A DNA stretch of 32,000 nucleotides from Faecousia sp. (GTDB taxonomy: Bacteria; Bacillota; Clostridia; Oscillospirales; Oscillospiraceae), in assembly GCA_045580365.1 (NCBI GenBank), contig JAZNNP010000010.1:14384-46383 (forward strand), read 5' to 3'. Positions 5,398 through 31,512 of this stretch are shown here, in pieces (the first letter of the stretch is position 1; the number at the start of each line of letters is the position of its first letter). Position numbers and translations under genes: made by a program. Under the pieces are notes generated by a model. The model searched no databases. It was given only the letters and a program-made list of their open reading frames with translations, and was not told where the DNA came from.

Positions 5398-5493
5398 AAC
5401 AGCGGGTGCGGTGACAGCATCGTGGAATGATCCTTCGTCCTCCAGGCAACTCCCCGTCCTGATGGCACTTAACGCGCTGTCTCCTACTCTGTT
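5398..5493 (-). promoter_or_regulatory. THF (tetrahydrofolate) riboswitch aptamer
   Basis: The minus strand reads AACAGAGUAGGAGACAGCGCGUUAAGUGCC...GGACGGGGAGUUGCC...GGACGAAGG...CUGUCACCGCACCCGCUGUU. From memory it shares AGAGUAG, CGCGUUAAGUG, GGGA, ACGAAG and CCGCU blocks with the Eubacterium siraeum folT THF riboswitch. P1 (AACAG/CUGUU) and P2 (GACAG/CUGUC) pairings are present. Confidence 0.85.
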
Positions 5494-10512: not shown

Positions 10513-11529
10513 ATGAAGGTACTGGTCACCGGCGGAGCGGGCTATATCGGCTCCCATACCTGCCTGGAACTGCTGGAAAGCGGTCACCAGGTGGTGGTTA
10601 TCGACAATCTGTGCAATTCCAACCCGGAAAGCTTGAACCGGGTGCAGGAACTGACGGGCAAGAGCCTGGAATTCTATGAAGGCGATGTGCGGGATGAAGG
10701 TCTGCTGCGGAAGATCTTTGCAGAGCATGCGGTAGATTGCGTCATCCATTTTGCCGGTCTGAAGGCTGTGGGTGAGTCCGTGGCCATGCCCTGGGAATAC
10801 TATGACAACAACCTCAATTCCACCCTGGTGCTGACCAAGGTGATGAAAGAGATGGGCGTAAAGAAGCTGATCTTCTCCTCTTCGGCCACGGTGTACACTG
10901 CCGACAATGAGATGCCTCTGAAAGAAACCAGCCGCACCGGCAACTGCACCAATCCTTACGGCTGGACCAAGTTTATGACGGAGCAGATCCTGTCCGGCAT
11001 GGCCCATGCGGACAAGGAGTGGAGCATCGTGCTGCTGCGGTACTTTAACCCCATCGGTGCCCATGAATCCGGCCGCATCGGCGAAGATCCCCGGGGTATT
11101 CCCAACAATCTGATGCCCTACATCACCCAGGTGGCGGTGGGCCGCCGGGATCATTTGAGCGTCTTTGGCGACGATTACGATACCCCCGACGGCACCGGCG
11201 TTCGGGACTACATCCATGTGGTGGGTCTGGGCAAGGGCCATGTGGCCTCCGTTTCTTATGCGGTGGCCCACAGGGGCTGCGAGGTGTTCAACCTGGGCAC
11301 CGGCGTGGGTTACAGCGTGCTGGATATGGTCCACACCTTTATCGATGTGAACCGGGTGCCCGTGCCCTACGAGATCGTGGAGCGCCGGCCCGGCGATATT
11401 GCCACCTGCTATGCCGATCCGGCCAAGAGCGCGGAAAACCTGGGCTGGAAAGCGGAAAAATCCCTGGCGGATATGTGCCGGGATTCCTGGAACTGGCAGA
11501 GCAAGAACCCCATGGGTTACGGGGAATAA
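10513..11529 (+). CDS. galE: UDP-glucose 4-epimerase
   Basis: MKVLVTGGAGYIGSH Rossmann motif, YGWTK (YxxxK) catalytic motif, full-length GalE-like layout, and RBS aaggaga. Confidence 0.92.
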   Translation: MKVLVTGGAGYIGSHTCLELLESGHQVVVIDNLCNSNPESLNRVQELTGKSLEFYEGDVRDEGLLRKIFAEHAVDCVIHFAGLKAVGESVAMPWEYYDNNLNSTLVLTKVMKEMGVKKLIFSSSATVYTADNEMPLKETSRTGNCTNPYGWTKFMTEQILSGMAHADKEWSIVLLRYFNPIGAHESGRIGEDPRGIPNNLMPYITQVAVGRRDHLSVFGDDYDTPDGTGVRDYIHVVGLGKGHVASVSYAVAHRGCEVFNLGTGVGYSVLDMVHTFIDVNRVPVPYEIVERRPGDIATCYADPAKSAENLGWKAEKSLADMCRDSWNWQSKNPMGYGE

Positions 11530-11540
11530 GGAATTTTTTT

Positions 11541-11575
11541 CGGCAGAAGGGTACGCCCTTCTGCCGATTTTTTGT
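11541..11575. terminator. Bidirectional-looking intrinsic terminator after galE
   Basis: cggcagaaggg-tac-gcccttctgccg flanked by ttttttt (5') and attttttg (3'). Confidence 0.8.
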
Positions 11576-11604
11576 GCAGGGGGGGAAGGCTTCCCGGGCG
11601 GCTC

Positions 11605-11633
11605 TTGAAAAATGGACCGCTGTGTGGTATTTT
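11605..11633 (+). promoter_or_regulatory. Candidate promoter of the gtrA-RyR(-TIR) unit
   Basis: TTGAAA (11605..11610), 17-nt spacer, TGgTATTTT extended -10 (11625..11633). Confidence 0.4.
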
Positions 11634-11668
11634 TATGGTAGATTCCGGAAATAACAGGAGGTTATACG

Positions 11669-12082
11669 ATGAGCGAGAAGAAAAAGGAATTTCTGCGGAC
11701 GGTGAAATTTGTGCTGTTTTCCATCAGCGCCGGTGTGATCCAGGTGGTCAGTTTCACGCTGTTTGAGGAAGTGCTGGGTCTGGTTCACTGGCTGGGCTAT
11801 ATGCTGTCGCTGGTGCTGTCCGTGCTGTGGAATTTTACGCTGAACCGGAAGTTTACCTTCTGCTCTGCGGGAAATGTGCCCCTGGCCATGGCCCAGGTGG
11901 CGGGCTTCTATGTGGTGTTTACGCCCCTGTCCACCTGGTGGACGGCGGTACTGACCGGGGAAAGCGTGGGTTGGAATGAGTATTTGGTGCTGGTGCTGAC
12001 CATGGTGGTGAATTTCGCCACTGAGTATCTGTTCCAGCGGTTTGTGGTGTTCCGCAAGAGTCTGGACACCGCCAAGAAGTAA
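11669..12082 (+). CDS. GtrA-family small polytopic membrane protein
   Basis: 137 aa with four hydrophobic segments. GtrA-like motifs are WNFTLNRKFTF and NFATEYLFQRFVVFRK. RBS is acaggagg. Confidence 0.8.
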   Translation: MSEKKKEFLRTVKFVLFSISAGVIQVVSFTLFEEVLGLVHWLGYMLSLVLSVLWNFTLNRKFTFCSAGNVPLAMAQVAGFYVVFTPLSTWWTAVLTGESVGWNEYLVLVLTMVVNFATEYLFQRFVVFRKSLDTAKK

Positions 12083-12089
12083 AGGGGCG

Positions 12090-12383
12090 ATGGAAATGTA
12101 TGAACCGAAGCCGGTGGATACCACCGATGTGCAGCTGCCGGAAAGCCTGCAGCCGCTGACGGAATGCATTGCTAAAAATGTCCACGAAGTCTGGGCCGCG
12201 GCCCGGATCGCCGAAGGTTGGACCCTGGGGGCGGAGCGCAACACGGAGAAAAAGACCACCCCCTGCCTGGTGCCCTATGAGGACCTGCCGGAGATCGAAA
12301 AGGAGTATGACCGGAACACGGCGATGCAGACCCTGAAGCTCATCGTGAAGCTGGGGTATCGGATTTTGCCGCCGGAAGAATAA
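12090..12383 (+). CDS. Stand-alone RyR (ryanodine-receptor repeat) domain protein
   Basis: AKNVHEVWAAARIAEGWTLGAERNTEKKTTPCLVPYEDLPEIEKEYDRNTAMQTLKLIVKLGYRI matches the RyR domain pattern (HE.W...GW..G......hP.LVPY.EL...EK..DR). The start is ATG 12090 or ATG 12096, 7-13 nt after the gtrA stop. Confidence 0.75.
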   Translation: MEMYEPKPVDTTDVQLPESLQPLTECIAKNVHEVWAAARIAEGWTLGAERNTEKKTTPCLVPYEDLPEIEKEYDRNTAMQTLKLIVKLGYRILPPEE

Positions 12384-12387
12384 ACAG

Positions 12388-12423
12388 AGCCCCGGTATGC
12401 GAAAACCGGGGCTGTTTGCTGTT
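12388..12423 (+). terminator. Weak terminator/attenuator hairpin between the RyR and TIR genes
   Basis: agccccgg-tatgcgaaaa-ccggggct followed by gtttgctgtt. The loop is long and the U-tract interrupted, so read-through is plausible. Confidence 0.4.
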
Positions 12424-12447
12424 ATACATGGTACAGGAGGCGAGAAT

Positions 12448-14520
12448 ATGAATTCGAAAATGCGTTTTTACCCGGAAGGCGTGGTGCTGCGAAAGCAGCC
12501 GCTGATCTTCTTTGCCTGCCATGAAGGGGAATTTGCGGATTGCTTTGAGGCTGTGACCCAGGATCTGTTTGTTCCTGAAATCCGGGCACAAAGCGACTTT
12601 GTTTTGTGTTATTACCGCCCGGAGGAAGCGCCGGCGGAGGACCCGGAATACTGGGACGACTTAAGCCGGATGAAACTGATGGTGTTGGCGGTCACCGCAG
12701 AATTGCTGGACGGAAAGGATCACCGGGCGCTGCGGGTCTTGCGTTTTGCCCAGGAACGGGGCATCCCGGTGCTGCCGGTTCTGATGAAGGAAGAGCTGGA
12801 AAATCGGTTTGATGATGTCTGCGGCAAGCTCCACGCATTGAACCGGACGGCAGATCAATATGGGGAGAAACTGCGCAGATTTCTGGAAATGGTGCTGGTC
12901 AGCAGCGAGCTGGCGGAGCGGATCCGGAAGGAATTTGATGCCAGGATCTTCCTGAGCTACCGCAAAATGGACCGCAGGCAGGCGTTGGATCTGATGAAAT
13001 TGATCCACCAGCGGCCGGCCTGCCGGGATGTGGCCATCTGGTATGATGACTATCTGACCCCCGGTGAGAATTTTGATGAAAATATCCTGACCATGATCCG
13101 CGGCAGTGACCTGTTCGTGCTGACGGTAACCCCTTCCGTTTTGAAGCCCCGGCTGGACGAAAACGGCAAGGAAGTTGATAATTATGTGCAGGTGATCGAG
13201 TATCCCGAGGCACAAAAGTGCGGCAAGGTGCTGCCGGCGGTGATGGAGCCGACAGACAAGGAAAAGCTGAAAGAGAAATTCCCCGGCGTGGAGGATCGCT
13301 GCGTGGATGCCCATAACGAGGAAGAACTGACCGAGGCCCTCCATCAGAAACTGCCCAAGGTGGTGGCCCGGCTGAATGATCCTGATAATGACCAAGATCC
13401 TGACCATCTGTATCTCATCGGTCTGGCCTATCTGAACGGCGTGGATGTGGAAGTGGATGGCGACCGGGCGGCGGAGCTGCTGACGGCGGCATCCCAGGGC
13501 GGCTGTATCGCGGCTACGGAGAAACTGGCGCAGATGTATCGCATTGGATATGGCGTAAAGCAGGACAAGGATCAGGCGTTGGCTTGGGCGGAACGGTTGA
13601 TCACCCAACTGAAGCAGCAATACAAGGCTCAACGGGATGAGGAAAACCTGAATCTGCTGGTTCTGGCCATTGTGGAATGCGGTGATGCGTACAGATCGTG
13701 GAACAATTATGCCAGAGCCAAAATGAAATACAGCCAAGCTATGGATTGCCTGGAACGCGCGGGTCTGTGCAAGAGCAACGACCGCGCCCGGCACAATCTG
13801 GCACTTTGCTATGAGCGGATGGGTTACCTGTGTACATTGAACGGTCAGCAAGCAGAGGCGTACGTTTATAACAATAAAGCGATGGAATTGTCTTTGCAGG
13901 CGGCACTGGTGAAACCGGGGCTGAACAGCACTTATGATCTTGCAACCAGTTTGATGAACGCCGGCGATTCCTGTATGGCGGGAAATCAATATGATGAGGC
14001 GCTTGAGAAATATCAGAGAAGCCTTGATTTGTATGAGTGCCTGGTAGAAGAAATTGGGATGGAAGAAGCGGAGGTGGCGGCTTCCTCCTGCTTGGGAAGA
14101 ATCGGGAATGTGTATAAGGAACGCGGCAACCTGGATGAAGCCCGGCGGTACTACAAAATGTATATGGAGAAGGCGGAGCAGTTGAATGCAAAAGCCAGTT
14201 CTCATCAGATCCGTCACAATCTTGCGGTCAGCTACTTCAGAATGGCTTCCGTTGCAGGGACACCGACGGACAGAAGACATTATTATGAAAAATCTATGGT
14301 CGTTGCCGAGGCATTGGCGGAAGAAACGGGCGTTGCCGAACATATGGAGAGCTGGGGCATCAGCTGCATGATGTTGGGGCAGTTTGATTCCCGGCGGAGA
14401 AAAGTGTTGCTGACGCAAGCGAAAAAGGTCTTTATGCGCCTGGCGCAACGGCAGCCTGCGAATCCTCGCTGGCAGCAGTATTTACGGCTTGCAGACCAGC
14501 TTCTGCAGCAAAAGGTATAG
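12448..14520 (+). CDS. Multi-domain protein: degenerate TIR-like domain + canonical TIR domain + Sel1-like repeats + TPR-like solenoid
   Basis: Start at MNSKMRFYPEG (ATG 12448) with acaggagg upstream. The TIR-2 pattern spans aa 165-268 (ARIFLSYRKMD...VAIWYDDYLTPGENFDENILTMIRGSDLFVLTVTPSVL...NYVQVIEYPEA...VLPAVME). A weaker, similar layout spans aa 17-115 (PLIFFACHEGEF...MKLMVLAVTAELL...GIPVLPVLM). Sel1 repeats cover aa 318-385 (LIGLAYLNGVDVEVDGDRAAELL...LAQMYRIGYGVKQDKDQALAWAERL). TPR-like helical repeats run to the C-terminus. Confidence 0.7.
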   Translation: MNSKMRFYPEGVVLRKQPLIFFACHEGEFADCFEAVTQDLFVPEIRAQSDFVLCYYRPEEAPAEDPEYWDDLSRMKLMVLAVTAELLDGKDHRALRVLRFAQERGIPVLPVLMKEELENRFDDVCGKLHALNRTADQYGEKLRRFLEMVLVSSELAERIRKEFDARIFLSYRKMDRRQALDLMKLIHQRPACRDVAIWYDDYLTPGENFDENILTMIRGSDLFVLTVTPSVLKPRLDENGKEVDNYVQVIEYPEAQKCGKVLPAVMEPTDKEKLKEKFPGVEDRCVDAHNEEELTEALHQKLPKVVARLNDPDNDQDPDHLYLIGLAYLNGVDVEVDGDRAAELLTAASQGGCIAATEKLAQMYRIGYGVKQDKDQALAWAERLITQLKQQYKAQRDEENLNLLVLAIVECGDAYRSWNNYARAKMKYSQAMDCLERAGLCKSNDRARHNLALCYERMGYLCTLNGQQAEAYVYNNKAMELSLQAALVKPGLNSTYDLATSLMNAGDSCMAGNQYDEALEKYQRSLDLYECLVEEIGMEEAEVAASSCLGRIGNVYKERGNLDEARRYYKMYMEKAEQLNAKASSHQIRHNLAVSYFRMASVAGTPTDRRHYYEKSMVVAEALAEETGVAEHMESWGISCMMLGQFDSRRRKVLLTQAKKVFMRLAQRQPANPRWQQYLRLADQLLQQKV

Positions 14521-14555
14521 TTGCGGATATTGCCTGCAGTATAGAGAGAAACCAA

Positions 14556-14581
14556 GCCCGGCCTGGAGACCCAGGCCGGGC
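14556..14581. terminator. Hairpin between the convergent TIR gene and dagK-like gene
   Basis: gcccggcctgg-agac-ccaggccgggc gives a perfect 11-bp stem but has no clear U-tract on either side. Confidence 0.5.
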
Positions 14582-14588
14582 ATGGTCG

Positions 14589-15515
14589 TTATACGGTTGC
14601 GGGTTCTTTGGCGGCGAAGGTGAGGCCCTTGGGATAGAAGAAGCGGATCTTCTTGTCGGAGATGCGGAACTCGGCCTCCTTGGCAAAGCGGATCTCACCG
14701 TCCAGGTTGATGGCACTGGGCTTGTCGCAGATCACTTTCACCTTGTCGGTGCGGTAGTGCTTGGCCAGGTGAGAAAGTTCCTTGTAGCGGCCGTTTTTGT
14801 ATTTGCCGATGATGGCGGGCACCTGGAGCCGGCTGACCTTTTTCACCACCAGTACATCCATCAGCCCATCGGTGGGGTCGGCTTCCGGCACAGGGTTGAA
14901 ACCGCCGCCGTAGAACCGGCCGTTGCACATACACACGAAGGTCTGCTTGCCGTCGATGACTTCGCCGTTGATCTCTACCACATAATGCTCGGCAATGCCC
15001 CGGATCACATTGATCACCGTAGAGGCAGCATAGGCCCAGAAACCGTGGAGCAGGGGCAGCCGCTTATAGTTGGCCACATCGTTGCCGATGCGGGCATCCA
15101 GACCCACGCAGCAGATATTCAGCGCCAGATCGCCGTTGCATTCGATGAGGTCGAACTGGGTCTCGTCCGCGTCCAGAAGCCGCTCCAGTTGGAAAAAGGC
15201 CTTGGGATCGTCGAAGATCTTCACAAAATCATTGCCGCTGCCGCCGGAAAACACGGTGATGGCGGCATTTTCATGTCCTGCTGCGCCGGCCATGACTTCG
15301 TTCAGGGTGCCGTCGCCGCCGCAGGCATACAGCCGCACTTCCCGGCCGCTTTCGGCGGCTTCCCGGGCGAAGCGGGTGCATTCGCCGGGGGCGGTGGAGA
15401 CCCGGATATCGTAGTCCAGACCCCGTTCCCGGCACAGCCGGTGGATCACCTGGCTGTAATCGTCGGTGCGGTTGCGGCTGCCGGCCGCCGGATTGATGAT
15501 GAAAAGGTGGGTCAT
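14589..15515 (-). CDS. Diacylglycerol kinase family lipid kinase (DagK/YegS-like)
   Basis: Start at MTHLFIINPAAGS (ATG 15515) with gggagag upstream. GGDGT motif is present (LYACGGDGTLNEV). Confidence 0.85.
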   Translation of the reverse strand: MTHLFIINPAAGSRNRTDDYSQVIHRLCRERGLDYDIRVSTAPGECTRFAREAAESGREVRLYACGGDGTLNEVMAGAAGHENAAITVFSGGSGNDFVKIFDDPKAFFQLERLLDADETQFDLIECNGDLALNICCVGLDARIGNDVANYKRLPLLHGFWAYAASTVINVIRGIAEHYVVEINGEVIDGKQTFVCMCNGRFYGGGFNPVPEADPTDGLMDVLVVKKVSRLQVPAIIGKYKNGRYKELSHLAKHYRTDKVKVICDKPSAINLDGEIRFAKEAEFRISDKKIRFFYPKGLTFAAKEPATV

Positions 15516-23199: not shown

Positions 23200-23273
23200 G
23201 CGGGTGTAGTTCAATGGTAGAACACCAGCCTTCCAAGCTGGATACGCGGGTCCGATTCCCGTCACCCGCTCCA
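23200..23273 (+). tRNA. tRNA-Gly (anticodon UCC), CCA encoded
   Basis: Acceptor GCGGGTG/CACCCGC, anticodon arm CCAGC-CTTCCAA-GCTGG, T-loop GGTCCGATTCC, 3' TCCA. Confidence 0.92.
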
Positions 23274-23278
23274 TAGAT

Positions 23279-23355
23279 GCGCCAGTAGCTCAGCTGGATA
23301 GAGCAACTGCCTTCTAAGCAGTAGGTCGGGGGTTCGAGTCCCTCCTGGCGTGCCA
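23279..23355 (+). tRNA. tRNA-Arg (anticodon UCU), CCA encoded
   Basis: Acceptor GCGCCAG/CTGGCGT (G1-U72), anticodon arm ACTGC-CTTCTAA-GCAGT, T-loop GGTTCGAGTCC, 3' GCCA. Confidence 0.92.
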
Positions 23356-23373
23356 CTTCAGTAAAATGAATAT

Positions 23374-23451
23374 GGTGGATATAGCACAGTTGGTTAGCGC
23401 GTCAGATTGTGGCTCTGAAGGTCGTGGGTTCGAATCCCATTATCCACCCCA
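23374..23451 (+). tRNA. tRNA-His (anticodon GUG) with encoded G-1 and CCA
   Basis: An extra 5' G pairs with discriminator C. Acceptor GTGGATA/TATCCAC, anticodon arm TCAGA-TTGTGGC-TCTGA, T-loop GGTTCGAATCC. Confidence 0.92.
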
Positions 23452-23905: not shown

Positions 23906-25036
23906 ATGCGGAAACTATATTATGAAGACAGCCATTTGACGGAATTTGAAGCCACGGTCTTAACCTGCGTCCCGGCAGAAGGCGGCTGGCACATCACCCT
24001 GGATGCCACCGCATTTTATCCCGAGGGCGGCGGACAGGCCTGCGACATGGGCGCCCTGGGGGGTGTGCAGGTGCTGGATGTGCAGGAAGAGGGGGACCGG
24101 ATCCTCCATCTGTGCGACGGCCCCCTGGAGGTCGGCCAGAAAGTGCAGGGCCGCATCGATTGGGACCGGCGGTTCGACCTGATGCAGCAGCACACCGGTG
24201 AGCATATCGTGTCCGGTTTGCTCCATGAAAAATTCGGCTACCACAATACGGGGTTTCATGTGGGCCAGGATGTGATGGAAGTGGACTTTGACGGGCCCAT
24301 CTCCCCCGAAGACCTGGCCGAGATCGAACGGCGGGCCAATGAAGCGGTGTGGGCGGATATTCCTCTGAAATACTGGATCCCCGACCCGGCAGAGTTGGAA
24401 ACGGTCACTTACCGCACCAAGCGGGCGTTGCCCTGGCCGGTGCGGATCGTCCAGGTGCCGGGATATGATTCCTGCGCTTGCTGCGGCATTCATGTGCAGC
24501 GCACCGGCGAGGTGGGCCTGATCAAGATTCTGTCCTGCGTCCGGCTTCGGGGCGGTGTGCGGCTGGGCATGGTCTGCGGCCGCAGAGCCTATGGCCACAT
24601 GGTAAAGATCTTTGAAGAAAACCGGGCGGTGAGCCAGACTTTTTCCGCCCATATGGAAGCCACCGGCGATGCCGCCCGGCGGATGAATGAAGCCCTGGCG
24701 GCGGAAAAGCAGAAAAACAGCGCCCTTCTGGGGCGGATCTTCCAGAATATTGCCGCCGGCTATGCCGGGCAGGAGGATGTGCTCCATTTTGAAGAAGGCC
24801 TGGAACCGGGGCAGGTGCGGCTGCTGGCGGATCAGATCGCCGGGGTCATCACCGGCCGGTGCGCCGTGTTTTCCGGGGGCAGTTATTGCCTGGCTGCCCG
24901 GCAGGGAGACCTGCGGCCGCTGAACAAGGCAATGACGGAAGCGCTGGACGGCCGGGGCGGCGGAAAGCCCAATTTCCAGCAGGGCAGCGTCCGGGCCACC
25001 CGGGAGCAGATCCAATCATTTTTCGCAGCATTGTGA
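23906..25036 (+). CDS. alaX: Alanyl-tRNA editing protein (AlaX-type; AlaRS N-terminal-like + editing domain)
   Basis: Start at MRKLYYEDSHLTEF (RBS aaaggag). Motifs are TAFYPEGGGQACDMG and the zinc motifs HTGEH and CCGIH. Confidence 0.8.
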   Translation: MRKLYYEDSHLTEFEATVLTCVPAEGGWHITLDATAFYPEGGGQACDMGALGGVQVLDVQEEGDRILHLCDGPLEVGQKVQGRIDWDRRFDLMQQHTGEHIVSGLLHEKFGYHNTGFHVGQDVMEVDFDGPISPEDLAEIERRANEAVWADIPLKYWIPDPAELETVTYRTKRALPWPVRIVQVPGYDSCACCGIHVQRTGEVGLIKILSCVRLRGGVRLGMVCGRRAYGHMVKIFEENRAVSQTFSAHMEATGDAARRMNEALAAEKQKNSALLGRIFQNIAAGYAGQEDVLHFEEGLEPGQVRLLADQIAGVITGRCAVFSGGSYCLAARQGDLRPLNKAMTEALDGRGGGKPNFQQGSVRATREQIQSFFAAL

Positions 25037-25109
25037 TGATGCGGGAGATTTTGTAGCATCTATGGAATAACTTTCGATAAAAAAGCACCTATTTATGCAA
25101 AAATCCCCC

Positions 25110-25138
25110 TTTACAATCAGAACCAATTATTGTATAAT
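25110..25138 (+). promoter_or_regulatory. Sigma-A type promoter for gap
   Basis: TTTACA (25110..25115), 17-nt spacer, TATAAT (25133..25138) preceded by TG. Confidence 0.6.
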
Positions 25139-25221
25139 GCTTTATGTATGGGGTTCAAAAAACCCATAAAAAACGTAACATATACTGCGAAAAGCAGTAA
25201 TTTGAAATGGAGGAAATTCCC

Positions 25222-26244
25222 ATGTCTGTTAAAGTTGCTATTAACGGTTTCGGTCGTATCGGCCGTCTGGCTTTCCGTCAGATGTTCGGTGCTGAGGGCT
25301 TCGAGGTTGTTGCCATCAACGACCTGACCTCTCCCAAGATGCTGGCTCACCTGCTGAAGTATGACTCCACTCAGGGCGCTTACGCTGCTCCCTTCGGCAC
25401 TCATACTGTCGAGGCTGGCGAGGATCACATCGTTGTCGACGGCAAGAAGATCACCATCTACGCCAAGGCTAACGCTGCGGAGCTGCCCTGGGGCGAGCTG
25501 GACGTGGACGTTGTCCTGGAGTGCACCGGCTTCTACACCAGCAAGGCTAAGGCTCAGGCGCACATCGACGCCGGCGCCAAGAAGGTCGTTATCTCCGCTC
25601 CTGCCGGCAACGACCTGCCCACCATCGTTTACAATGTCAACCACGAGACTCTGACTCGCGACGACCACATCATCTCCGCCGCTTCCTGCACCACCAACTG
25701 CCTGGCTCCCATGGCGAAGGCTCTGAATGACCTGGCTCCCATCGAGTCCGGCATTATGTGCACCATCCACGCTTACACCGGCGACCAGATGATCCTGGAC
25801 GGCCCCCAGAGAAAGGGCGACCTGCGCCGCTCCCGCGCCGGCGCGATCAACATCGTGCCCAACTCCACCGGCGCTGCCAAGGCTATCGGCCTGGTCATCC
25901 CCGAGCTGAACGGCAAGCTGATCGGCGCTGCTCAGCGTATCCCCACTCCCACCGGCTCCACCACCATCCTGAACGCTGTGGTTGCTAAGGAAGTCACCAA
26001 GGAAGAGATCAACGCTGCCATGAAGGCTGCTCAGACCGAGTCCTACGGCTACACCGAGGACGAGATCGTCTCCTCCGACATCGTCGGCATGACCTTCGGC
26101 TCCCTGTTCGATGCTACCCAGACCATGGTCAACAAGCTGCCCGGCGGCATGACCCAGGTCCAGGTCGTTTCCTGGTACGACAACGAGAACTCCTACGTTT
26201 CTCAGATGGTCCGCACCATCAAGCACTTCTCCACTCTGCTGTAA
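25222..26244 (+). CDS. gap: Type I glyceraldehyde-3-phosphate dehydrogenase
   Basis: Start at [15 protein letters not shown] (RBS ggagga). The active-site block [12 protein letters not shown] is present, and codon choice is strongly biased (GCT, TCC, CTG, GGC), typical of a highly expressed gene. Confidence 0.95.
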
Positions 26245-26830: not shown

Positions 26831-27598
26831 ATGCTTTTTGATACACACGCGCATATGGATGACCGTGCATTTGACCAGGACCGGGAGGAATTGCTGGCAA
26901 GACTGCCGCAGGAGGGCATCGGCCTGCTGATGAACCCGGGCTGCAACCTGGCTTCTTCCCGGAATGCGGTGGCGCTGGCCCGGCAGTATGACTATATTTA
27001 TGCCGCCGTGGGCGCCCACCCCGATTCTGCCGACGCGGTCAATGAGGAGACCCTGGAAGAATACAGAAAATTATGTAAACTAAATCCGGAAAAGGTAAAG
27101 GCCATCGGGGAGATCGGCCTGGATTATCATTATGAGGATATTCCCCGTCAGTTGCAGAAGAAGGCCTTCATCGCCCAAATGGAGCTGGCCCGGGAACTGG
27201 ATCTGCCGGTCATCGTCCATGAGCGGGATGCCCATGAGGACGGCCTGGCCATCGTCAAGGGGTTCCCGGAGGTCAAAGGCGTGTTCCACTGCTTCTCCGG
27301 TTCGGCAGAGCTGGCCCGGCAACTGACGGATCTGGGCTGGTATATCGGTTTCACCGGGGTGCTGACCTTCAAAAATGCCCGCCGGGCCATCGAGGCCGCC
27401 CAGGCCATCCCCCTGGAGCGGATCGTCATCGAAACGGATTGTCCCTATATGTCCCCCGAGCCTTTCCGGGGTCGGCGGAATGATCCGGGAAAGATTTACC
27501 GCATGGCGGAAAAATTGGCCGAGATCCGGGGCATTTCTCCGGAGGAAGCCCGCCGCATCACCATGGAAAACGGCAAGCGGCTGTACCGTATCCCCTGA
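26831..27598 (+). CDS. tatD: TatD-family metal-dependent hydrolase/DNase
   Basis: MLFDTHAHMDD, GEIGLDYHY, HERDAHED, HCFSGS and ETDCPYM motifs. ATG 26831 is preferred (ggagg 7 nt upstream); ATG 26825, overlapping the PPTase stop, is the alternative. Confidence 0.88.
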   Translation: MLFDTHAHMDDRAFDQDREELLARLPQEGIGLLMNPGCNLASSRNAVALARQYDYIYAAVGAHPDSADAVNEETLEEYRKLCKLNPEKVKAIGEIGLDYHYEDIPRQLQKKAFIAQMELARELDLPVIVHERDAHEDGLAIVKGFPEVKGVFHCFSGSAELARQLTDLGWYIGFTGVLTFKNARRAIEAAQAIPLERIVIETDCPYMSPEPFRGRRNDPGKIYRMAEKLAEIRGISPEEARRITMENGKRLYRIP

Positions 27599-27605
27599 AA
27601 CGTGC

Positions 27606-27633
27606 AAAGTCCGCAGCGTCTGCTGCGGACTTT
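27606..27633 (+). terminator. Terminator hairpin after tatD
   Basis: aaagtccgcagc-gtct-gctgcggacttt gives a 12-bp stem with a short U-tract. Confidence 0.6.
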
Positions 27634-27656
27634 ACACAAGAAAGAGGAGAGGAAAA

Positions 27657-27713
27657 ATGAAAAATGAAGAATTTGAATCGTTTGATATCATTGTAATTTT
27701 TATTTGTGAATAA
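27657..27713 (+). CDS. Possible 18-aa micro-ORF (MKNEEFESFDIIVIFICE)
   Basis: It has a strong RBS (agaggagagg, about 5 nt spacing to the ATG) and sits in an unusually AT-rich spacer. There is no homology evidence, so it may not be translated. Confidence 0.2.
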   Translation: MKNEEFESFDIIVIFICE

Positions 27714-27803
27714 AAAAAGTGAATATTTGTTAAGAAAGTTTGAAGTTGTGTGAAAAAAGAATGTTTTTCACCGGTGGACGGTTTCGCCGGGGAAAGAAAT
27801 TCC

Positions 27804-27832
27804 TTTACATTAAGCCCATTTTGGGGTAGAAT
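27804..27832 (+). promoter_or_regulatory. Sigma-A type promoter for the 112-aa gene and gluQ
   Basis: TTTACA (27804..27809), 17-nt spacer, TAGAAT (27827..27832). Confidence 0.55.
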
Positions 27833-27855
27833 GATGAAAAAGGAGGTGCGTCCGA

Positions 27856-28194
27856 ATGGATGACAAGCAGAAAGAATTGGATCGCATCCAGAAAGCCCTG
27901 CTGGCGGAGGAAGATGATCAGCCGCTGGAGGATATTTTGAATGACGAGGAACTCAATGCGTTGCTGAACGATGAGCCTGCCCCCGCTTTTGACGATCCGG
28001 AGGAGATCCGGGATCCCAAGCGCCAGGGGTATCAGAATTTTGCCAACAACTATGGCAATGATCCGAAAGAAGAAACAGAGGAAGACCGGAAGGCGCTGAA
28101 TGAAAAGGTGATCCTGGGTCTGATGATCACGGCCAGCGTGCTGTGCCTGGGCATTATCGGCGTGCTGGGTTACTGGCTGGGCGTGCTGCTGTGA
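27856..28194 (+). CDS. Hypothetical acidic, C-terminally membrane-anchored protein
   Basis: RBS aaaggagg. A highly acidic N-terminal region of about 85 aa (EEDDQPLEDILNDEELNALLNDEP...) precedes a single C-terminal TM helix (VILGLMITASVLCLGIIGVLGYWLGVLL). The stop overlaps the gluQ GTG start (GTGA). Confidence 0.6.
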   Translation: MDDKQKELDRIQKALLAEEDDQPLEDILNDEELNALLNDEPAPAFDDPEEIRDPKRQGYQNFANNYGNDPKEETEEDRKALNEKVILGLMITASVLCLGIIGVLGYWLGVLL

Positions 28195-30999: not shown

Positions 31000-31147
31000 A
31001 TTCCTGTTCCAATTCTTCCAAATGCTTTTTCAGAACAATGTTGATGTACTGCGACAGAGACCGGTCGTCATAGTCCGCCAGTTCCCGGAGCTTTTCCAGG
31101 ATATCTCCGTCAATGGTTATGCTGATCTTTTCTTTCAACGGTCTCAT
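30998..31147 (-). CDS. Ribbon-helix-helix (CopG/Arc-like) small DNA-binding protein, 49 aa (not in the ORF track)
   Basis: Read by hand: MRPLKEKISITIDGDILEKLRELADYDDRSLSQYINIVLKKHLEELEQE. RBS gaggtg lies 7 nt before ATG 31147. The beta-strand (KISITID) plus two-helix pattern is typical of RHH antitoxins/repressors. Confidence 0.65.
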   Translation of the reverse strand: MRPLKEKISITIDGDILEKLRELADYDDRSLSQYINIVLKKHLEELEQE

Positions 31148-31192
31148 ATCGACTCACCTCGCGATAACTATACCACGATGTCCCACAAAATA

Positions 31193-31221
31193 TTGACAAG
31201 TAGCATAAAGTAGGATATACT
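31193..31221 (+). promoter_or_regulatory. Sigma-A type promoter for the XRE gene, with overlapping inverted repeat
   Basis: TTGACA (31193..31198), 17-nt spacer, TATACT (31216..31221). AGTAG-N6-CTACT and a second AGTAG copy overlap the spacer and -10. Confidence 0.55.
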
Positions 31222-31240
31222 ACTACCAAGAGGTGATCTG

Positions 31241-31474
31241 ATGAACGATTATTTGGAAGGCGAGCGGTTTGTACACAATTTGTGTTTTCTTCGCAAGAAG
31301 TATGGCGTGCCGCAAAAATCCTTGGCTGCGCTGGCCGGCATCAGCCTGCCGATCCTGCGGCTGACGGAACGGGGGCAAGTAGTGCCCCGGTTAACACAGG
31401 AGCAACTGACGCGGCTTTGTCAAATTTTCAATATTACACCGAACGCTCTTTTGCAAACCGATCTCACAAAATGA
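31241..31474 (+). CDS. XRE-family helix-turn-helix transcriptional regulator, 77 aa
   Basis: LRKKYGVPQKSLAALAGISLPILRLTERGQ...LTRLCQIFNITPNALL matches the HTH_3 pattern. RBS is aagaggtg. Confidence 0.7.
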   Translation: MNDYLEGERFVHNLCFLRKKYGVPQKSLAALAGISLPILRLTERGQVVPRLTQEQLTRLCQIFNITPNALLQTDLTK

Positions 31475-31475
31475 C

Positions 31476-31512
31476 AATCACCGCCGTACGGGTTCGTACG
31501 GCGGTGTGCGTT
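31476..31512. repeat. 37-bp direct repeat, copy 2 (terminator hairpin between XRE gene and plsC)
   Basis: Identical to 30963..30999. Its last bases contribute to the plsC stop codon, just as copy 1 contributes to the RHH stop codon. Confidence 0.95.

Follow-up and report, generated by a model that had tools for sequence, protein, structure and literature searches.

Bacteria, plants, and animals use isomers of cyclic ADP-ribose (cADPR) derived from TIR domains as immune signals, and we know of no host enzyme or buffer that ends such signals in bacteria. TIR signaling systems have been reported in ~8% of bacterial genomes; in the Thoeris systems (types I to VIII), the TIR synthase ThsB works with a separate signal-activated effector. 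The RyR Repeat12 domain was tied to TIR signals only in 2026, and only for phage anti-defense proteins, when RyDEP and RyR Tad were described as phage anti-Thoeris proteins (PMC13232231; 10.64898/2026.06.04.730250). RyDEP, gp78 of mycobacteriophage DyoEdafos, is a PF02026 homodimer that hydrolyzes the ribose-ribose bond of 2'cADPR and 3'cADPR; H75 and D117 form its catalytic dyad, W78 and H100 bind the ligand, and other phage RyR homologs are nanomolar sponges (May 2026 preprint, PMC13232231). RyR Tad, gp68 of Pectobacterium phage CB1, binds 3'cADPR (Kd, 43 nM), 2'cADPR, and cADPR with residues H129/W132 (an HxxW motif), K147/H154, and K170/D171 (June 2026 preprint, 10.64898/2026.06.04.730250). 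A host-encoded RyR protein beside a TIR gene is described in neither preprint, nor did we find one in a wider literature search, and a RyR-domain effector is not among the ~30 effector types of a December 2025 survey of TIR systems. Here, we analyzed 32,000 nucleotides of a Faecousia sp. genome (contig JAZNNP010000010.1, positions 14,384 to 46,383; the window), in which a gene for a stand-alone RyR protein is followed by a gene for a 690-amino-acid (aa) protein with tandem TIR, Sel1, and TPR domains. With moderate confidence, we read these two genes as linked parts of an immune-type module of TIR, NAD-derived nucleotide signaling. A functional link between RyR and TIR is favored because TIR genes are enriched in RyR neighborhoods, because two open reading frames (ORFs) fuse the two domains, and because RyR domains have been published to bind TIR products. 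We class the locus as a new form of TIR signaling, assignable to no named system, in which the host itself encodes a RyR partner; in the window, it is reduced to two genes next to a GtrA gene, most likely a passenger. The pair is probably a sign of a branch of TIR signaling on the host side that has yet to be described.

The RyR protein of the window scored 120.1 bits against Pfam PF02026 (gathering cut-off, 27.4) and matched the crystallized "putative ryanodine receptor" of Bacteroides thetaiotaomicron in PDB (3NRT, 1.6e-33), to which it is ~70% identical. The family of such RyR-only proteins (~95 aa) returned 6328 matches, the best 120 clusters of which are at least 67% identical, and at least 541 genome loci were confirmed. 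Members 58 to 74% identical to the window protein come from Clostridia, Bacteroidales, Erysipelotrichaceae, and metagenome-assembled genomes labeled actinobacterium and Planctomycetaceae. We aligned the window protein to RyDEP gp78 (sequence from MN234187.1) and found that H32, W35, and D74 have the same spacing as H75, W78, and D117; H32 and D74 were invariant in 105 relatives. The window protein thus shares with RyDEP and RyR Tad the Pfam domain (profile match, 96.8%), an equally spaced HxxW motif and Asp, and a small single-repeat build for which dimerization is expected in both. It differs from them in being host-encoded, chromosomal, vertically inherited, and adjacent to a TIR gene rather than part of a phage anti-defense locus. 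Moreover, it is only ~30% identical to RyDEP and falls into the 3NRT-like clade, which is much closer to the animal RyR repeats. One repeat of mammalian RyR1 (repeat 1) matched the window protein at 8e-18 and has the same pocket residues, and the animal R12/RY12 domains bind the adenine nucleotides ADP and AMP-PCP; the animal protein, however, carries two tandem repeats in a 5000-aa Ca2+ channel, compared with the single 95-aa repeat here.

The 690-aa protein encoded downstream begins with two TIR-like domains. The second scored 36.2 bits against Pfam TIR_2 (gathering cut-off, 28), and a TIR profile derived from the family matched it at aa 167 to 264 (4e-23) and also matched the first domain, which lacks the conserved Glu in the family alignment. 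A preliminary description of this DNA, made from the sequence alone, had called the pair a degenerate TIR followed by a canonical one, and this stands, since the first domain matches the TIR profile without having that Glu. In the second domain only, E251 was invariant across 79 family members, and in a phmmer alignment it lies opposite the KE of the WVHKEIV motif of the SARM1 TIR domain, whose Glu we take to be the catalytic E642. We therefore propose that the second domain is catalytically competent by virtue of E251. An AlphaFold2 model built with 79 homologs (predicted local distance difference test score, 89.9) showed two alpha/beta domains and then a helical solenoid at ~318 to 687; the TIR pair runs straight into the helical repeats, with no central P-loop NTPase region between them. 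With the model of the first 310 residues, Foldseek matched the TIR domains of the NADases SARM1 and SPARTA and the plant NLR RPP1 at a probability of 1.0, with target-normalized TM-scores of 0.56 to 0.66. Its top match was the tandem GTPase Der/EngA, which we set aside because it reflects two generic alpha/beta domains and not homology, and so only single-domain TIR matches were used. Pfam searches of the 690-aa protein found no NTPase (NACHT or NB-ARC), SIR2, SAVED, or nuclease domain, and neither a signal peptide nor a membrane segment is present. The Sel1/TPR solenoid is presumably a sensor or scaffold. The family comprises at least 561 clusters, mostly ~35% identical and from Clostridia, that are named only as TIR-domain proteins and often lie in multi-TIR clusters.

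We compared the locus with named systems. Like SARM1 and the bacterial TIR NADases (the TIR-APAZ protein of SPARTA, AbTir), the large protein has a TIR fold with an invariant Glu in the expected helix; unlike them, it joins a degenerate TIR and a TIR to Sel1 and TPR repeats and has no SAM/ARM, Argonaute, or STAND module. The absence of a central P-loop NTPase likewise sets it apart from the TIR sensors of Avs-like STAND/NLR type. The likeness to Thoeris is that a Glu-bearing TIR protein adjoins a domain of the kind that binds cADPR isomers, and that related loci add effector-like proteins (membrane/TrkA_N/RyR-like or kinase/Card1-like nuclease). In contrast to Thoeris, no known effector domain (SIR2-SLOG, Macro-TM, caspase-like, or others) occurs in the three genes or in the 32-kb window, and the TIR protein is large, tandem, and usually alone. 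The best NCBIfam Thoeris model was ThcB4, at 23.5 bits against a cut-off of 220. PADLOC-DB v2.0.0 had no match for the GtrA or RyR proteins and gave the large protein only generic TPR matches and a weak TIR match (best, SAVED_TIR, 1.3e-3). Altogether, PADLOC-DB v2, NCBIfam 2026, and PHROGs assigned the three proteins to no named defense system; a PADLOC search was one of the checks that the preliminary description had proposed. That description had also seen no ThsA-like, SIR2, SAVED, STAND, or nuclease partner, and domain searches of the 32-kb window agreed. With RyDEP and RyR Tad, RyR domains now have a known defense-related role in phages; on the host side, we found no description.

Next, we looked into the gene neighborhoods of both proteins, using 80 genome loci anchored on close RyR-only homologs (58 to 74% identical) and 80 metagenome loci anchored on homologs of the TIR-Sel1-TPR protein. 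TIR proteins were counted with the TIR profile, for which six proteins served as a check against Pfam. Within 10 kb of the RyR gene, 29 of the 80 RyR-anchored loci encoded one or more TIR proteins, some as many as four or five, and in 14 a TIR gene was directly adjacent. The share of TIR genes among all genes was 9.3% up to 1 kb from RyR and fell to 2.3% at 7.5 to 10 kb (odds ratio for <2.5 kb versus 5 to 10 kb = 3.6, P value = 3.5e-4). The partners were diverse and included Sel1/TPR, STAND-TPR, NB-ARC-TPR, LRR, and MORN types. Furthermore, Pfam identified both domains in two single ORFs, one of 1139 aa with TIR_2, a NACHT-like STAND, TPR, and RyR, beside a kinase-type operon (L018:6260-9679, minus strand), and one of 512 aa with RyR and TIR_2 (L057:28-1566, plus strand). 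Other loci place RyR-like repeats next to the TIR gene. The gene order in L103 is TIR, TrkA_N/RyR-like membrane protein, RyR-only, TIR. In two TIR-anchored loci (L133:8507-9919 and L159:8461-9975), the gene directly upstream of the TIR-Sel1-TPR gene, which it overlaps in L159, encodes a 470- to 504-aa protein in which membrane helices at the N terminus are followed by a Rossmann-like part and, at the C terminus, by a RyR-like repeat (ELEHxRW...H...D).

Across the 80 RyR-anchored loci, the RyR-only gene was nearly always the last gene, directly after one for a large protein. In 29 loci this was a membrane protein family whose profile matched only RyR domains in PDB (2e-10); a Glu-His-x-x-Trp motif and a second His were invariant in it, and TrkA_N was matched by 7 of 28 members. 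In 13 loci it was a ~1400-aa protein with a Pkinase domain, a weak RyR-like region, and a Card1-like endonuclease domain. The remaining kinds were a Bacteroidales membrane protein and a double-AAA plus M41 protease found with a CARF-PD-(D/E)xK protein and YbjN-like proteins. The kinase-type loci form a recurrent operon that ends in RyR-only (13/80; L031:1-9917, L033, L052, L063, L077, and others), in the order ~600-aa unknown protein, PP2C phosphatase, ~1400-aa Pkinase/RyR-like/Card1-like PD-(D/E)xK protein, RyR-only. The phosphatase and the unknown protein usually precede the kinase protein, and TIR genes often follow RyR-only; TIR or TIR-like genes do so in L031, L033, L077, and L018 (the fusion). 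PADLOC found no complete system in this operon, with only partial PD-T4-6 kinase and CARF_PDDEXK matches. A second recurrent operon (L044, L047, L055, L062, L074, L024, L053, and L067, with RyR at ~10001 in each) runs from YbjN-like proteins through a CARF4-PD-(D/E)xK (Card1-like) protein, a ~1160-aa double-AAA plus Peptidase_M41 protein, and a membrane TrkA_N/RyR-like protein to RyR-only, and it looks like an undescribed conflict system. Some Bacteroidales loci with several TIR genes encode ~375-aa proteins with a C-terminal RyR domain and a weak N-terminal Peptidase_C39_2 match (L075:9305-10441 and similarly L061, L064, L078, and L089). Large TPR proteins that cluster with the TIR-Sel1-TPR family and have no TIR match are encoded directly after RyR-only in L025 (10366-12657) and one gene further on in L019 (10970-14326); by eye, their N termini (KIFLGSS...E..ER) are a candidate DUF4062-type TIR-like domain.

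If the two genes form a linked module, the 690-aa protein would sense a trigger through its Sel1/TPR solenoid, and its second TIR domain, probably after oligomerization, would use E251 to cleave or cyclize NAD+ to an ADP-ribose-type product. The 95-aa RyR protein would be a homodimer, like its B. thetaiotaomicron homolog, and would bind this product in the H32/W35/D74 pocket and either sequester or hydrolyze it. RyR would thus be a host-encoded buffer or off-switch in a module that may have a phage phenotype. Type III CRISPR ring nucleases (Crn1 to Crn3) and viral AcrIII-1 are small proteins that remove a second messenger, and viruses use homologs as anti-defense; the likeness lies only in the proposed logic of a host protein removing or buffering such a messenger and is an analogy, as fold, ligand, and system are all unlike those of the window's RyR protein. 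Alternatively, in the fuller systems, a receptor of two repeats may form, to which the upstream effector contributes its RyR-like repeat and the RyR-only protein the second one. RyR-only proteins are widespread in gut Firmicutes and Bacteroidota. A host RyR partner would give TIR immunity a further layer, whether regulatory or receptor-like, and would explain phage RyR domains as captured from the host. It would also open the much-disputed connection of cADPR to the ryanodine receptor to direct testing with a 95-aa bacterial protein whose close homolog 3NRT has been crystallized.

A broader version of this proposal, which we advance only tentatively and think somewhat unlikely, is that RyR repeats, beyond their use as phage sponges, are native receptors or regulators for TIR-made ADP-ribose signals in bacterial immunity, forming a new Thoeris-like superfamily that is ancestral to the animal TIR/CD38-cADPR-ryanodine receptor axis. 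The membrane TrkA_N/RyR-like and kinase/Card1-like nuclease proteins would then be signal-gated effectors, each with a single RyR-like repeat that the RyR-only protein encoded just downstream would either complete or compete with. Several kinds of TIR sensors (Sel1/TPR, STAND-TPR, LRR, and MORN) would supply the signal.

We then examined the history of the locus. Exact-sequence lookups of the window's RyR, DagK, and GalE proteins gave no match, and the context was drawn from near-identical homologs. In contigs of the window's species cluster, from several metagenome samples (L191 to L198), the order ansA, galE, GtrA, RyR, TIR, dagK was kept wherever the contig reached. Compared with L191, synonymous divergence (dS) was about equal for galE, GtrA, RyR, TIR, and dagK (0.18 to 0.24), and the ratio of nonsynonymous to synonymous divergence (dN/dS) was 0.23 for TIR, 0.06 for RyR, and 0.04 for GtrA (ranges over comparisons, 0.06 to 0.18 for RyR and 0.04 to 0.09 for GtrA). 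All three genes are under purifying selection. Flank-like dS and low dN/dS indicate that the genes of the locus are functional and vertically inherited with their flanks. The sister lineages L001 to L008 and L204 keep GtrA (90 to 93% identical to the window), RyR (85 to 86%), TIR, and dagK, and they encode upstream a 1280-aa Pkinase-domain protein whose gene overlaps GtrA; in L001 to L008, a 719-aa protein of unknown function precedes it. The flanking dagK, rlmL, queH, and rluD of L004 are 90 to 94% identical to those of the window, and lspA is 78% identical. The TIR proteins of the sister lineages are only 72% and 44% identical to that of the window, with lengths of 695 and 900 aa, and the TIR gene is thus the fast-evolving member of the locus. 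The order RyR then TIR was nevertheless kept in all three lineages. On the simplest reading, the ancestral operon of the genus held the unknown protein, the kinase protein, GtrA, RyR, and TIR, of which the first two were lost in the window's species. The preliminary description had proposed comparing the interval between galE and dagK in relatives; the interval is present in the species-cluster contigs where reached, the sister lineages have a larger operon, and the form in the window is reduced. In L004, the GtrA gene begins within the last codons of the kinase gene, and the kinase protein of this genus (L004:3742-7584) is without the C-terminal Card1-like endonuclease domain of its relatives (L031:5727-9917). 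Also in L004 (11652-13256), rlmL was called as a 534-aa product that also matches DUF559; the window ortholog has 377 aa and no DUF559.

Several observations weigh against the reading of the two genes as a linked module. In the reverse test, a RyR or RyR-like gene was found in only 4 of the 80 TIR-anchored loci, namely, one canonical RyR-only gene (L103), one partial RyR gene, and the two membrane/Rossmann/RyR-like genes of L133 and L159; many of these contigs are short, which limits the test in either direction. The TIR-Sel1-TPR family showed no conserved neighbor among these loci and evidently can work alone. The co-occurrence proposed in the preliminary description was therefore found in one direction: RyR genes tend to sit with TIR genes, yet the TIR-Sel1-TPR family is mostly without RyR (76/80). 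Since most RyR-only genes directly follow a large non-TIR protein (membrane TrkA_N/RyR-like, kinase/Card1-like, or AAA-M41), the primary partner of RyR may be that upstream protein, which is absent from the window. Within the window, the RyR and TIR genes differ in codon usage and are separated by a hairpin. Finally, the window protein has Thr57 in place of the phosphate-binding His of the phage proteins (H100 in RyDEP, H154 in RyR Tad), and H100 is among the residues needed for RyDEP cleavage. Among 91 cellular sequences, position 57 was Thr 60 times, His 23 times, Asn 6 times, and Ser twice; among 14 sequences from viral contigs, it was His 10 times and Thr or Asn twice each. This split may reflect taxon or ligand specificity.

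Much of this would be expected if the two genes were adjacent by descent only, with the TIR protein a self-contained single-gene sensor and NADase, RyR a leftover of a kinase operon whose main genes this species has lost, and no interaction between the TIR and RyR proteins. Such an account gains from the lack of RyR in 76 of the 80 TIR-anchored loci and of any partner common to them, from the sister lineages, in which RyR comes behind the kinase protein and GtrA and the genes overlap or are closely packed, from the recurrence of a kinase protein followed by RyR in 13 genomes, and from the hairpin and the differing composition. It has more difficulty with the TIR enrichment beside RyR-only genes, which decays with distance, with the two fusion ORFs, and with the kinase-type operons elsewhere that are also followed by TIR or TIR-like genes. 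Moreover, RyR has stayed under strong purifying selection after the loss of the kinase gene, as its dN/dS against L191 indicates. We consider adjacency by descent unlikely, while regarding it as the most serious of the alternatives.

Non-immune signaling is distinctly less probable. Here, RyR would sense adenine nucleotides (ADP, ATP, or ADP-ribose) and the TIR protein would regulate NAD turnover, the two together tuning metabolism or the response to stress. The housekeeping surroundings, vertical inheritance at the dS of the flanks, and fixation in all sampled contigs of the species cluster fit this view, as do the nucleotide binding of the animal domains and the extreme conservation of RyR, which is 58 to 74% identical across phyla and still recognizable in RyR1. 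However, the neighbors of RyR-only genes are of conflict type (TIR-STAND, TIR-LRR, CARF-PD-(D/E)xK, SUKH_5, AAA-protease, and kinase/PP2C), and the TIR gene evolves severalfold faster than the flanks (44 to 72% versus 90 to 94% identity). In addition, gut phages carry RyR homologs in phage-like gene strings.

This last observation also bears on whether the RyR protein could be a resident anti-defense factor of the RyDEP or RyR Tad type, brought in by a mobile element on whose behalf it suppresses TIR signaling. The only characterized prokaryote-associated RyR-domain proteins are phage anti-Thoeris factors, PHROG matches exist for the RyR protein, and IMG/VR yielded 15 phage-like loci with homologs 48 to 67% identical, mostly in strings of small same-strand genes typical of phages. 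Against these 15 viral loci stand at least 541 genome loci, and homologs from isolate phages are at most 36% identical; we therefore regard the RyR-only clade as mainly cellular with some capture by gut phages. A distribution so weighted toward hosts is what one would predict had phages taken over a regulator from their hosts. In the window, there is no mobile-element context, the codon usage of RyR is native, and the gene is chromosomal, syntenic in the same position in three lineages, and no different from its flanks in dS. We consider this explanation very unlikely. Barely plausible is a Tcp-like role, in which the TIR protein would be secreted against Toll-like receptor signaling of the animal host, with GtrA and RyR unrelated to it: bacterial Tcp proteins exist and the organism is a gut commensal, but the protein has no signal peptide, membrane segment, or nearby secretion genes, its family has >560 cytosolic-type members in gut commensals, often in multi-TIR clusters, and it pairs an invariant catalytic-type Glu with a SARM1-like fold. 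Of the readings in the preliminary description, a new TIR-based architecture is favored in the form of a link between RyR and TIR; GtrA as a general partner does not hold, and the Tcp-like option finds no support.

GtrA is a hydrophobic protein of 137 aa that scored 38.1 bits against Pfam PF04138 (cut-off, 26.1), with homologs in >120 clusters at least 77% identical to the window protein. We considered it as a membrane effector paired with RyR and rejected it as a general partner. Orthologs ~80% identical in two other Oscillospiraceae are surrounded by metabolic genes of no related function, with neither RyR nor TIR in the vicinity, and a GtrA-like gene occurred in 1 of the 80 RyR-anchored loci, ~7 kb away; GtrA is therefore most likely a passenger, a bystander or housekeeping gene. 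Its position beside RyR is conserved in the three related lineages, and within this genus it may still be a partner.

The features of the locus are listed in the table below. Gene prediction on this high-GC DNA relied on a self-trained codon-score caller, whose output agreed with the gene calls of the database. The layout agrees with the preliminary description in most respects: Pfam confirmed its three ORFs (GtrA, RyR-only, and TIR plus Sel1 and TPR) and their domains, and the strong terminator it placed after galE, the weak hairpin it placed before the TIR gene, and the convergent gene for a DagK/YegS family kinase were all found. The gap of 7 nucleotides (nt) that it gave between GtrA and RyR holds for the first ATG; RyR homologs start at the second Met, which is also better spaced behind the AAGGGG ribosome-binding site. 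Folding energies were -34.8 kcal/mol for the galE terminator (11528-11600, 73 nt; z = -3.4), -26.3 kcal/mol for the segment with the intergenic hairpin (12380-12450, 71 nt), and -41.4 kcal/mol for the bidirectional terminator (14515-14595, 81 nt; z = -6.9).

Features of the galE-dagK interval and its left neighbor in the Faecousia sp. window (positions counted from the first nucleotide of the window)
Feature	Positions	Strand	Basis or remark
galE	10513-11529	+	Gene call; housekeeping gene left of the unit
galE intrinsic terminator, 12-bp stem (11540-11567) followed by a T-run	11540-11575	+	Left boundary of the unit
Candidate sigma-70-like promoter ahead of GtrA, TTGAAA-17-TATTTT with TG	11605-11633	+	Consensus match only
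GtrA-family small membrane protein, 137 aa	11669-12082	+	Pfam GtrA_DPMS_TM, 2e-9
Stand-alone RyR (Repeat12-type) domain protein	12090-12383; likely true start, 12096 (95 aa)	+	Pfam RyR, 4.8e-35
Pocket residue H32	12183-12185	+	Aligns with RyDEP H75
Pocket residue W35	12192-12194	+	Aligns with RyDEP W78
Thr57	12258-12260	+	At the position of RyDEP H100
Pocket residue D74	12309-12311	+	Aligns with RyDEP D117
Hairpin between RyR and TIR genes, 9-bp stem, poor T-tail	12388-12413	+	Possible partial terminator
Tandem-TIR + Sel1 + TPR protein, 690 aa	12448-14520	+	GGAGG ribosome-binding site upstream
N-terminal degenerate TIR-like domain, aa 23-111	12514-12780	+	Family-derived TIR profile, 9e-11
TIR domain, aa 167-291	12946-13320	+	Pfam TIR_2, 9.5e-9
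E251 codon, family-invariant	13198-13200	+	Translation checked
Sel1/TPR alpha-solenoid, aa ~318-688	13399-14511	+	Pfam Sel1 and several TPR families; model helices 318-687
Bidirectional terminator common to the TIR gene and convergent dagK	14556-14581	.	Right boundary of the unit

The preliminary description had further called the three genes a lower-GC island. Its three counts of G+C in single 60-nt lines (24, 28, and 39) are exact, and the interval is indeed lower than the rest of the window (0.543 versus 0.587), but the dip is confined to the TIR gene. The G+C content at third codon positions (GC3) is 0.648 in that gene against a window mean of 0.763 (standard deviation, 0.046), and its codon score is the lowest in the window; GtrA (GC3, 0.768) and RyR (0.765) have ordinary codon scores and native composition. 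Several other 500-nt stretches of the 32 kb have a G+C content equal to or lower than that of the interval. No tRNA or integrase gene lies at its borders, where the neighbors are of housekeeping type with no mobility-gene match. The locus is thus not a recently acquired genomic island: only the TIR gene is atypical, there are no tRNA or mobility genes at the borders, and dS equals that of the flanks. A prophage or integrative-element origin was rejected on composition, synteny, and dS. The three genes are not a compositionally distinct island and bear no sign of recent transfer, and GtrA is not co-conserved with the other two outside one genus.

Elsewhere in the window, the 500-nt stretches 25001-25500, 27501-28000, and 31001-31500 have G+C contents of 0.46 to 0.48, below any value in the locus, and seem to overlap gaps between called genes. 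A tetrahydrofolate (THF) riboswitch lies at 5398-5493 on the minus strand (Rfam RF01831, 87 bits), and three tRNA genes (Gly-tcc, Arg-tct, and His-gtg) are clustered at 23200-23451 on the plus strand.

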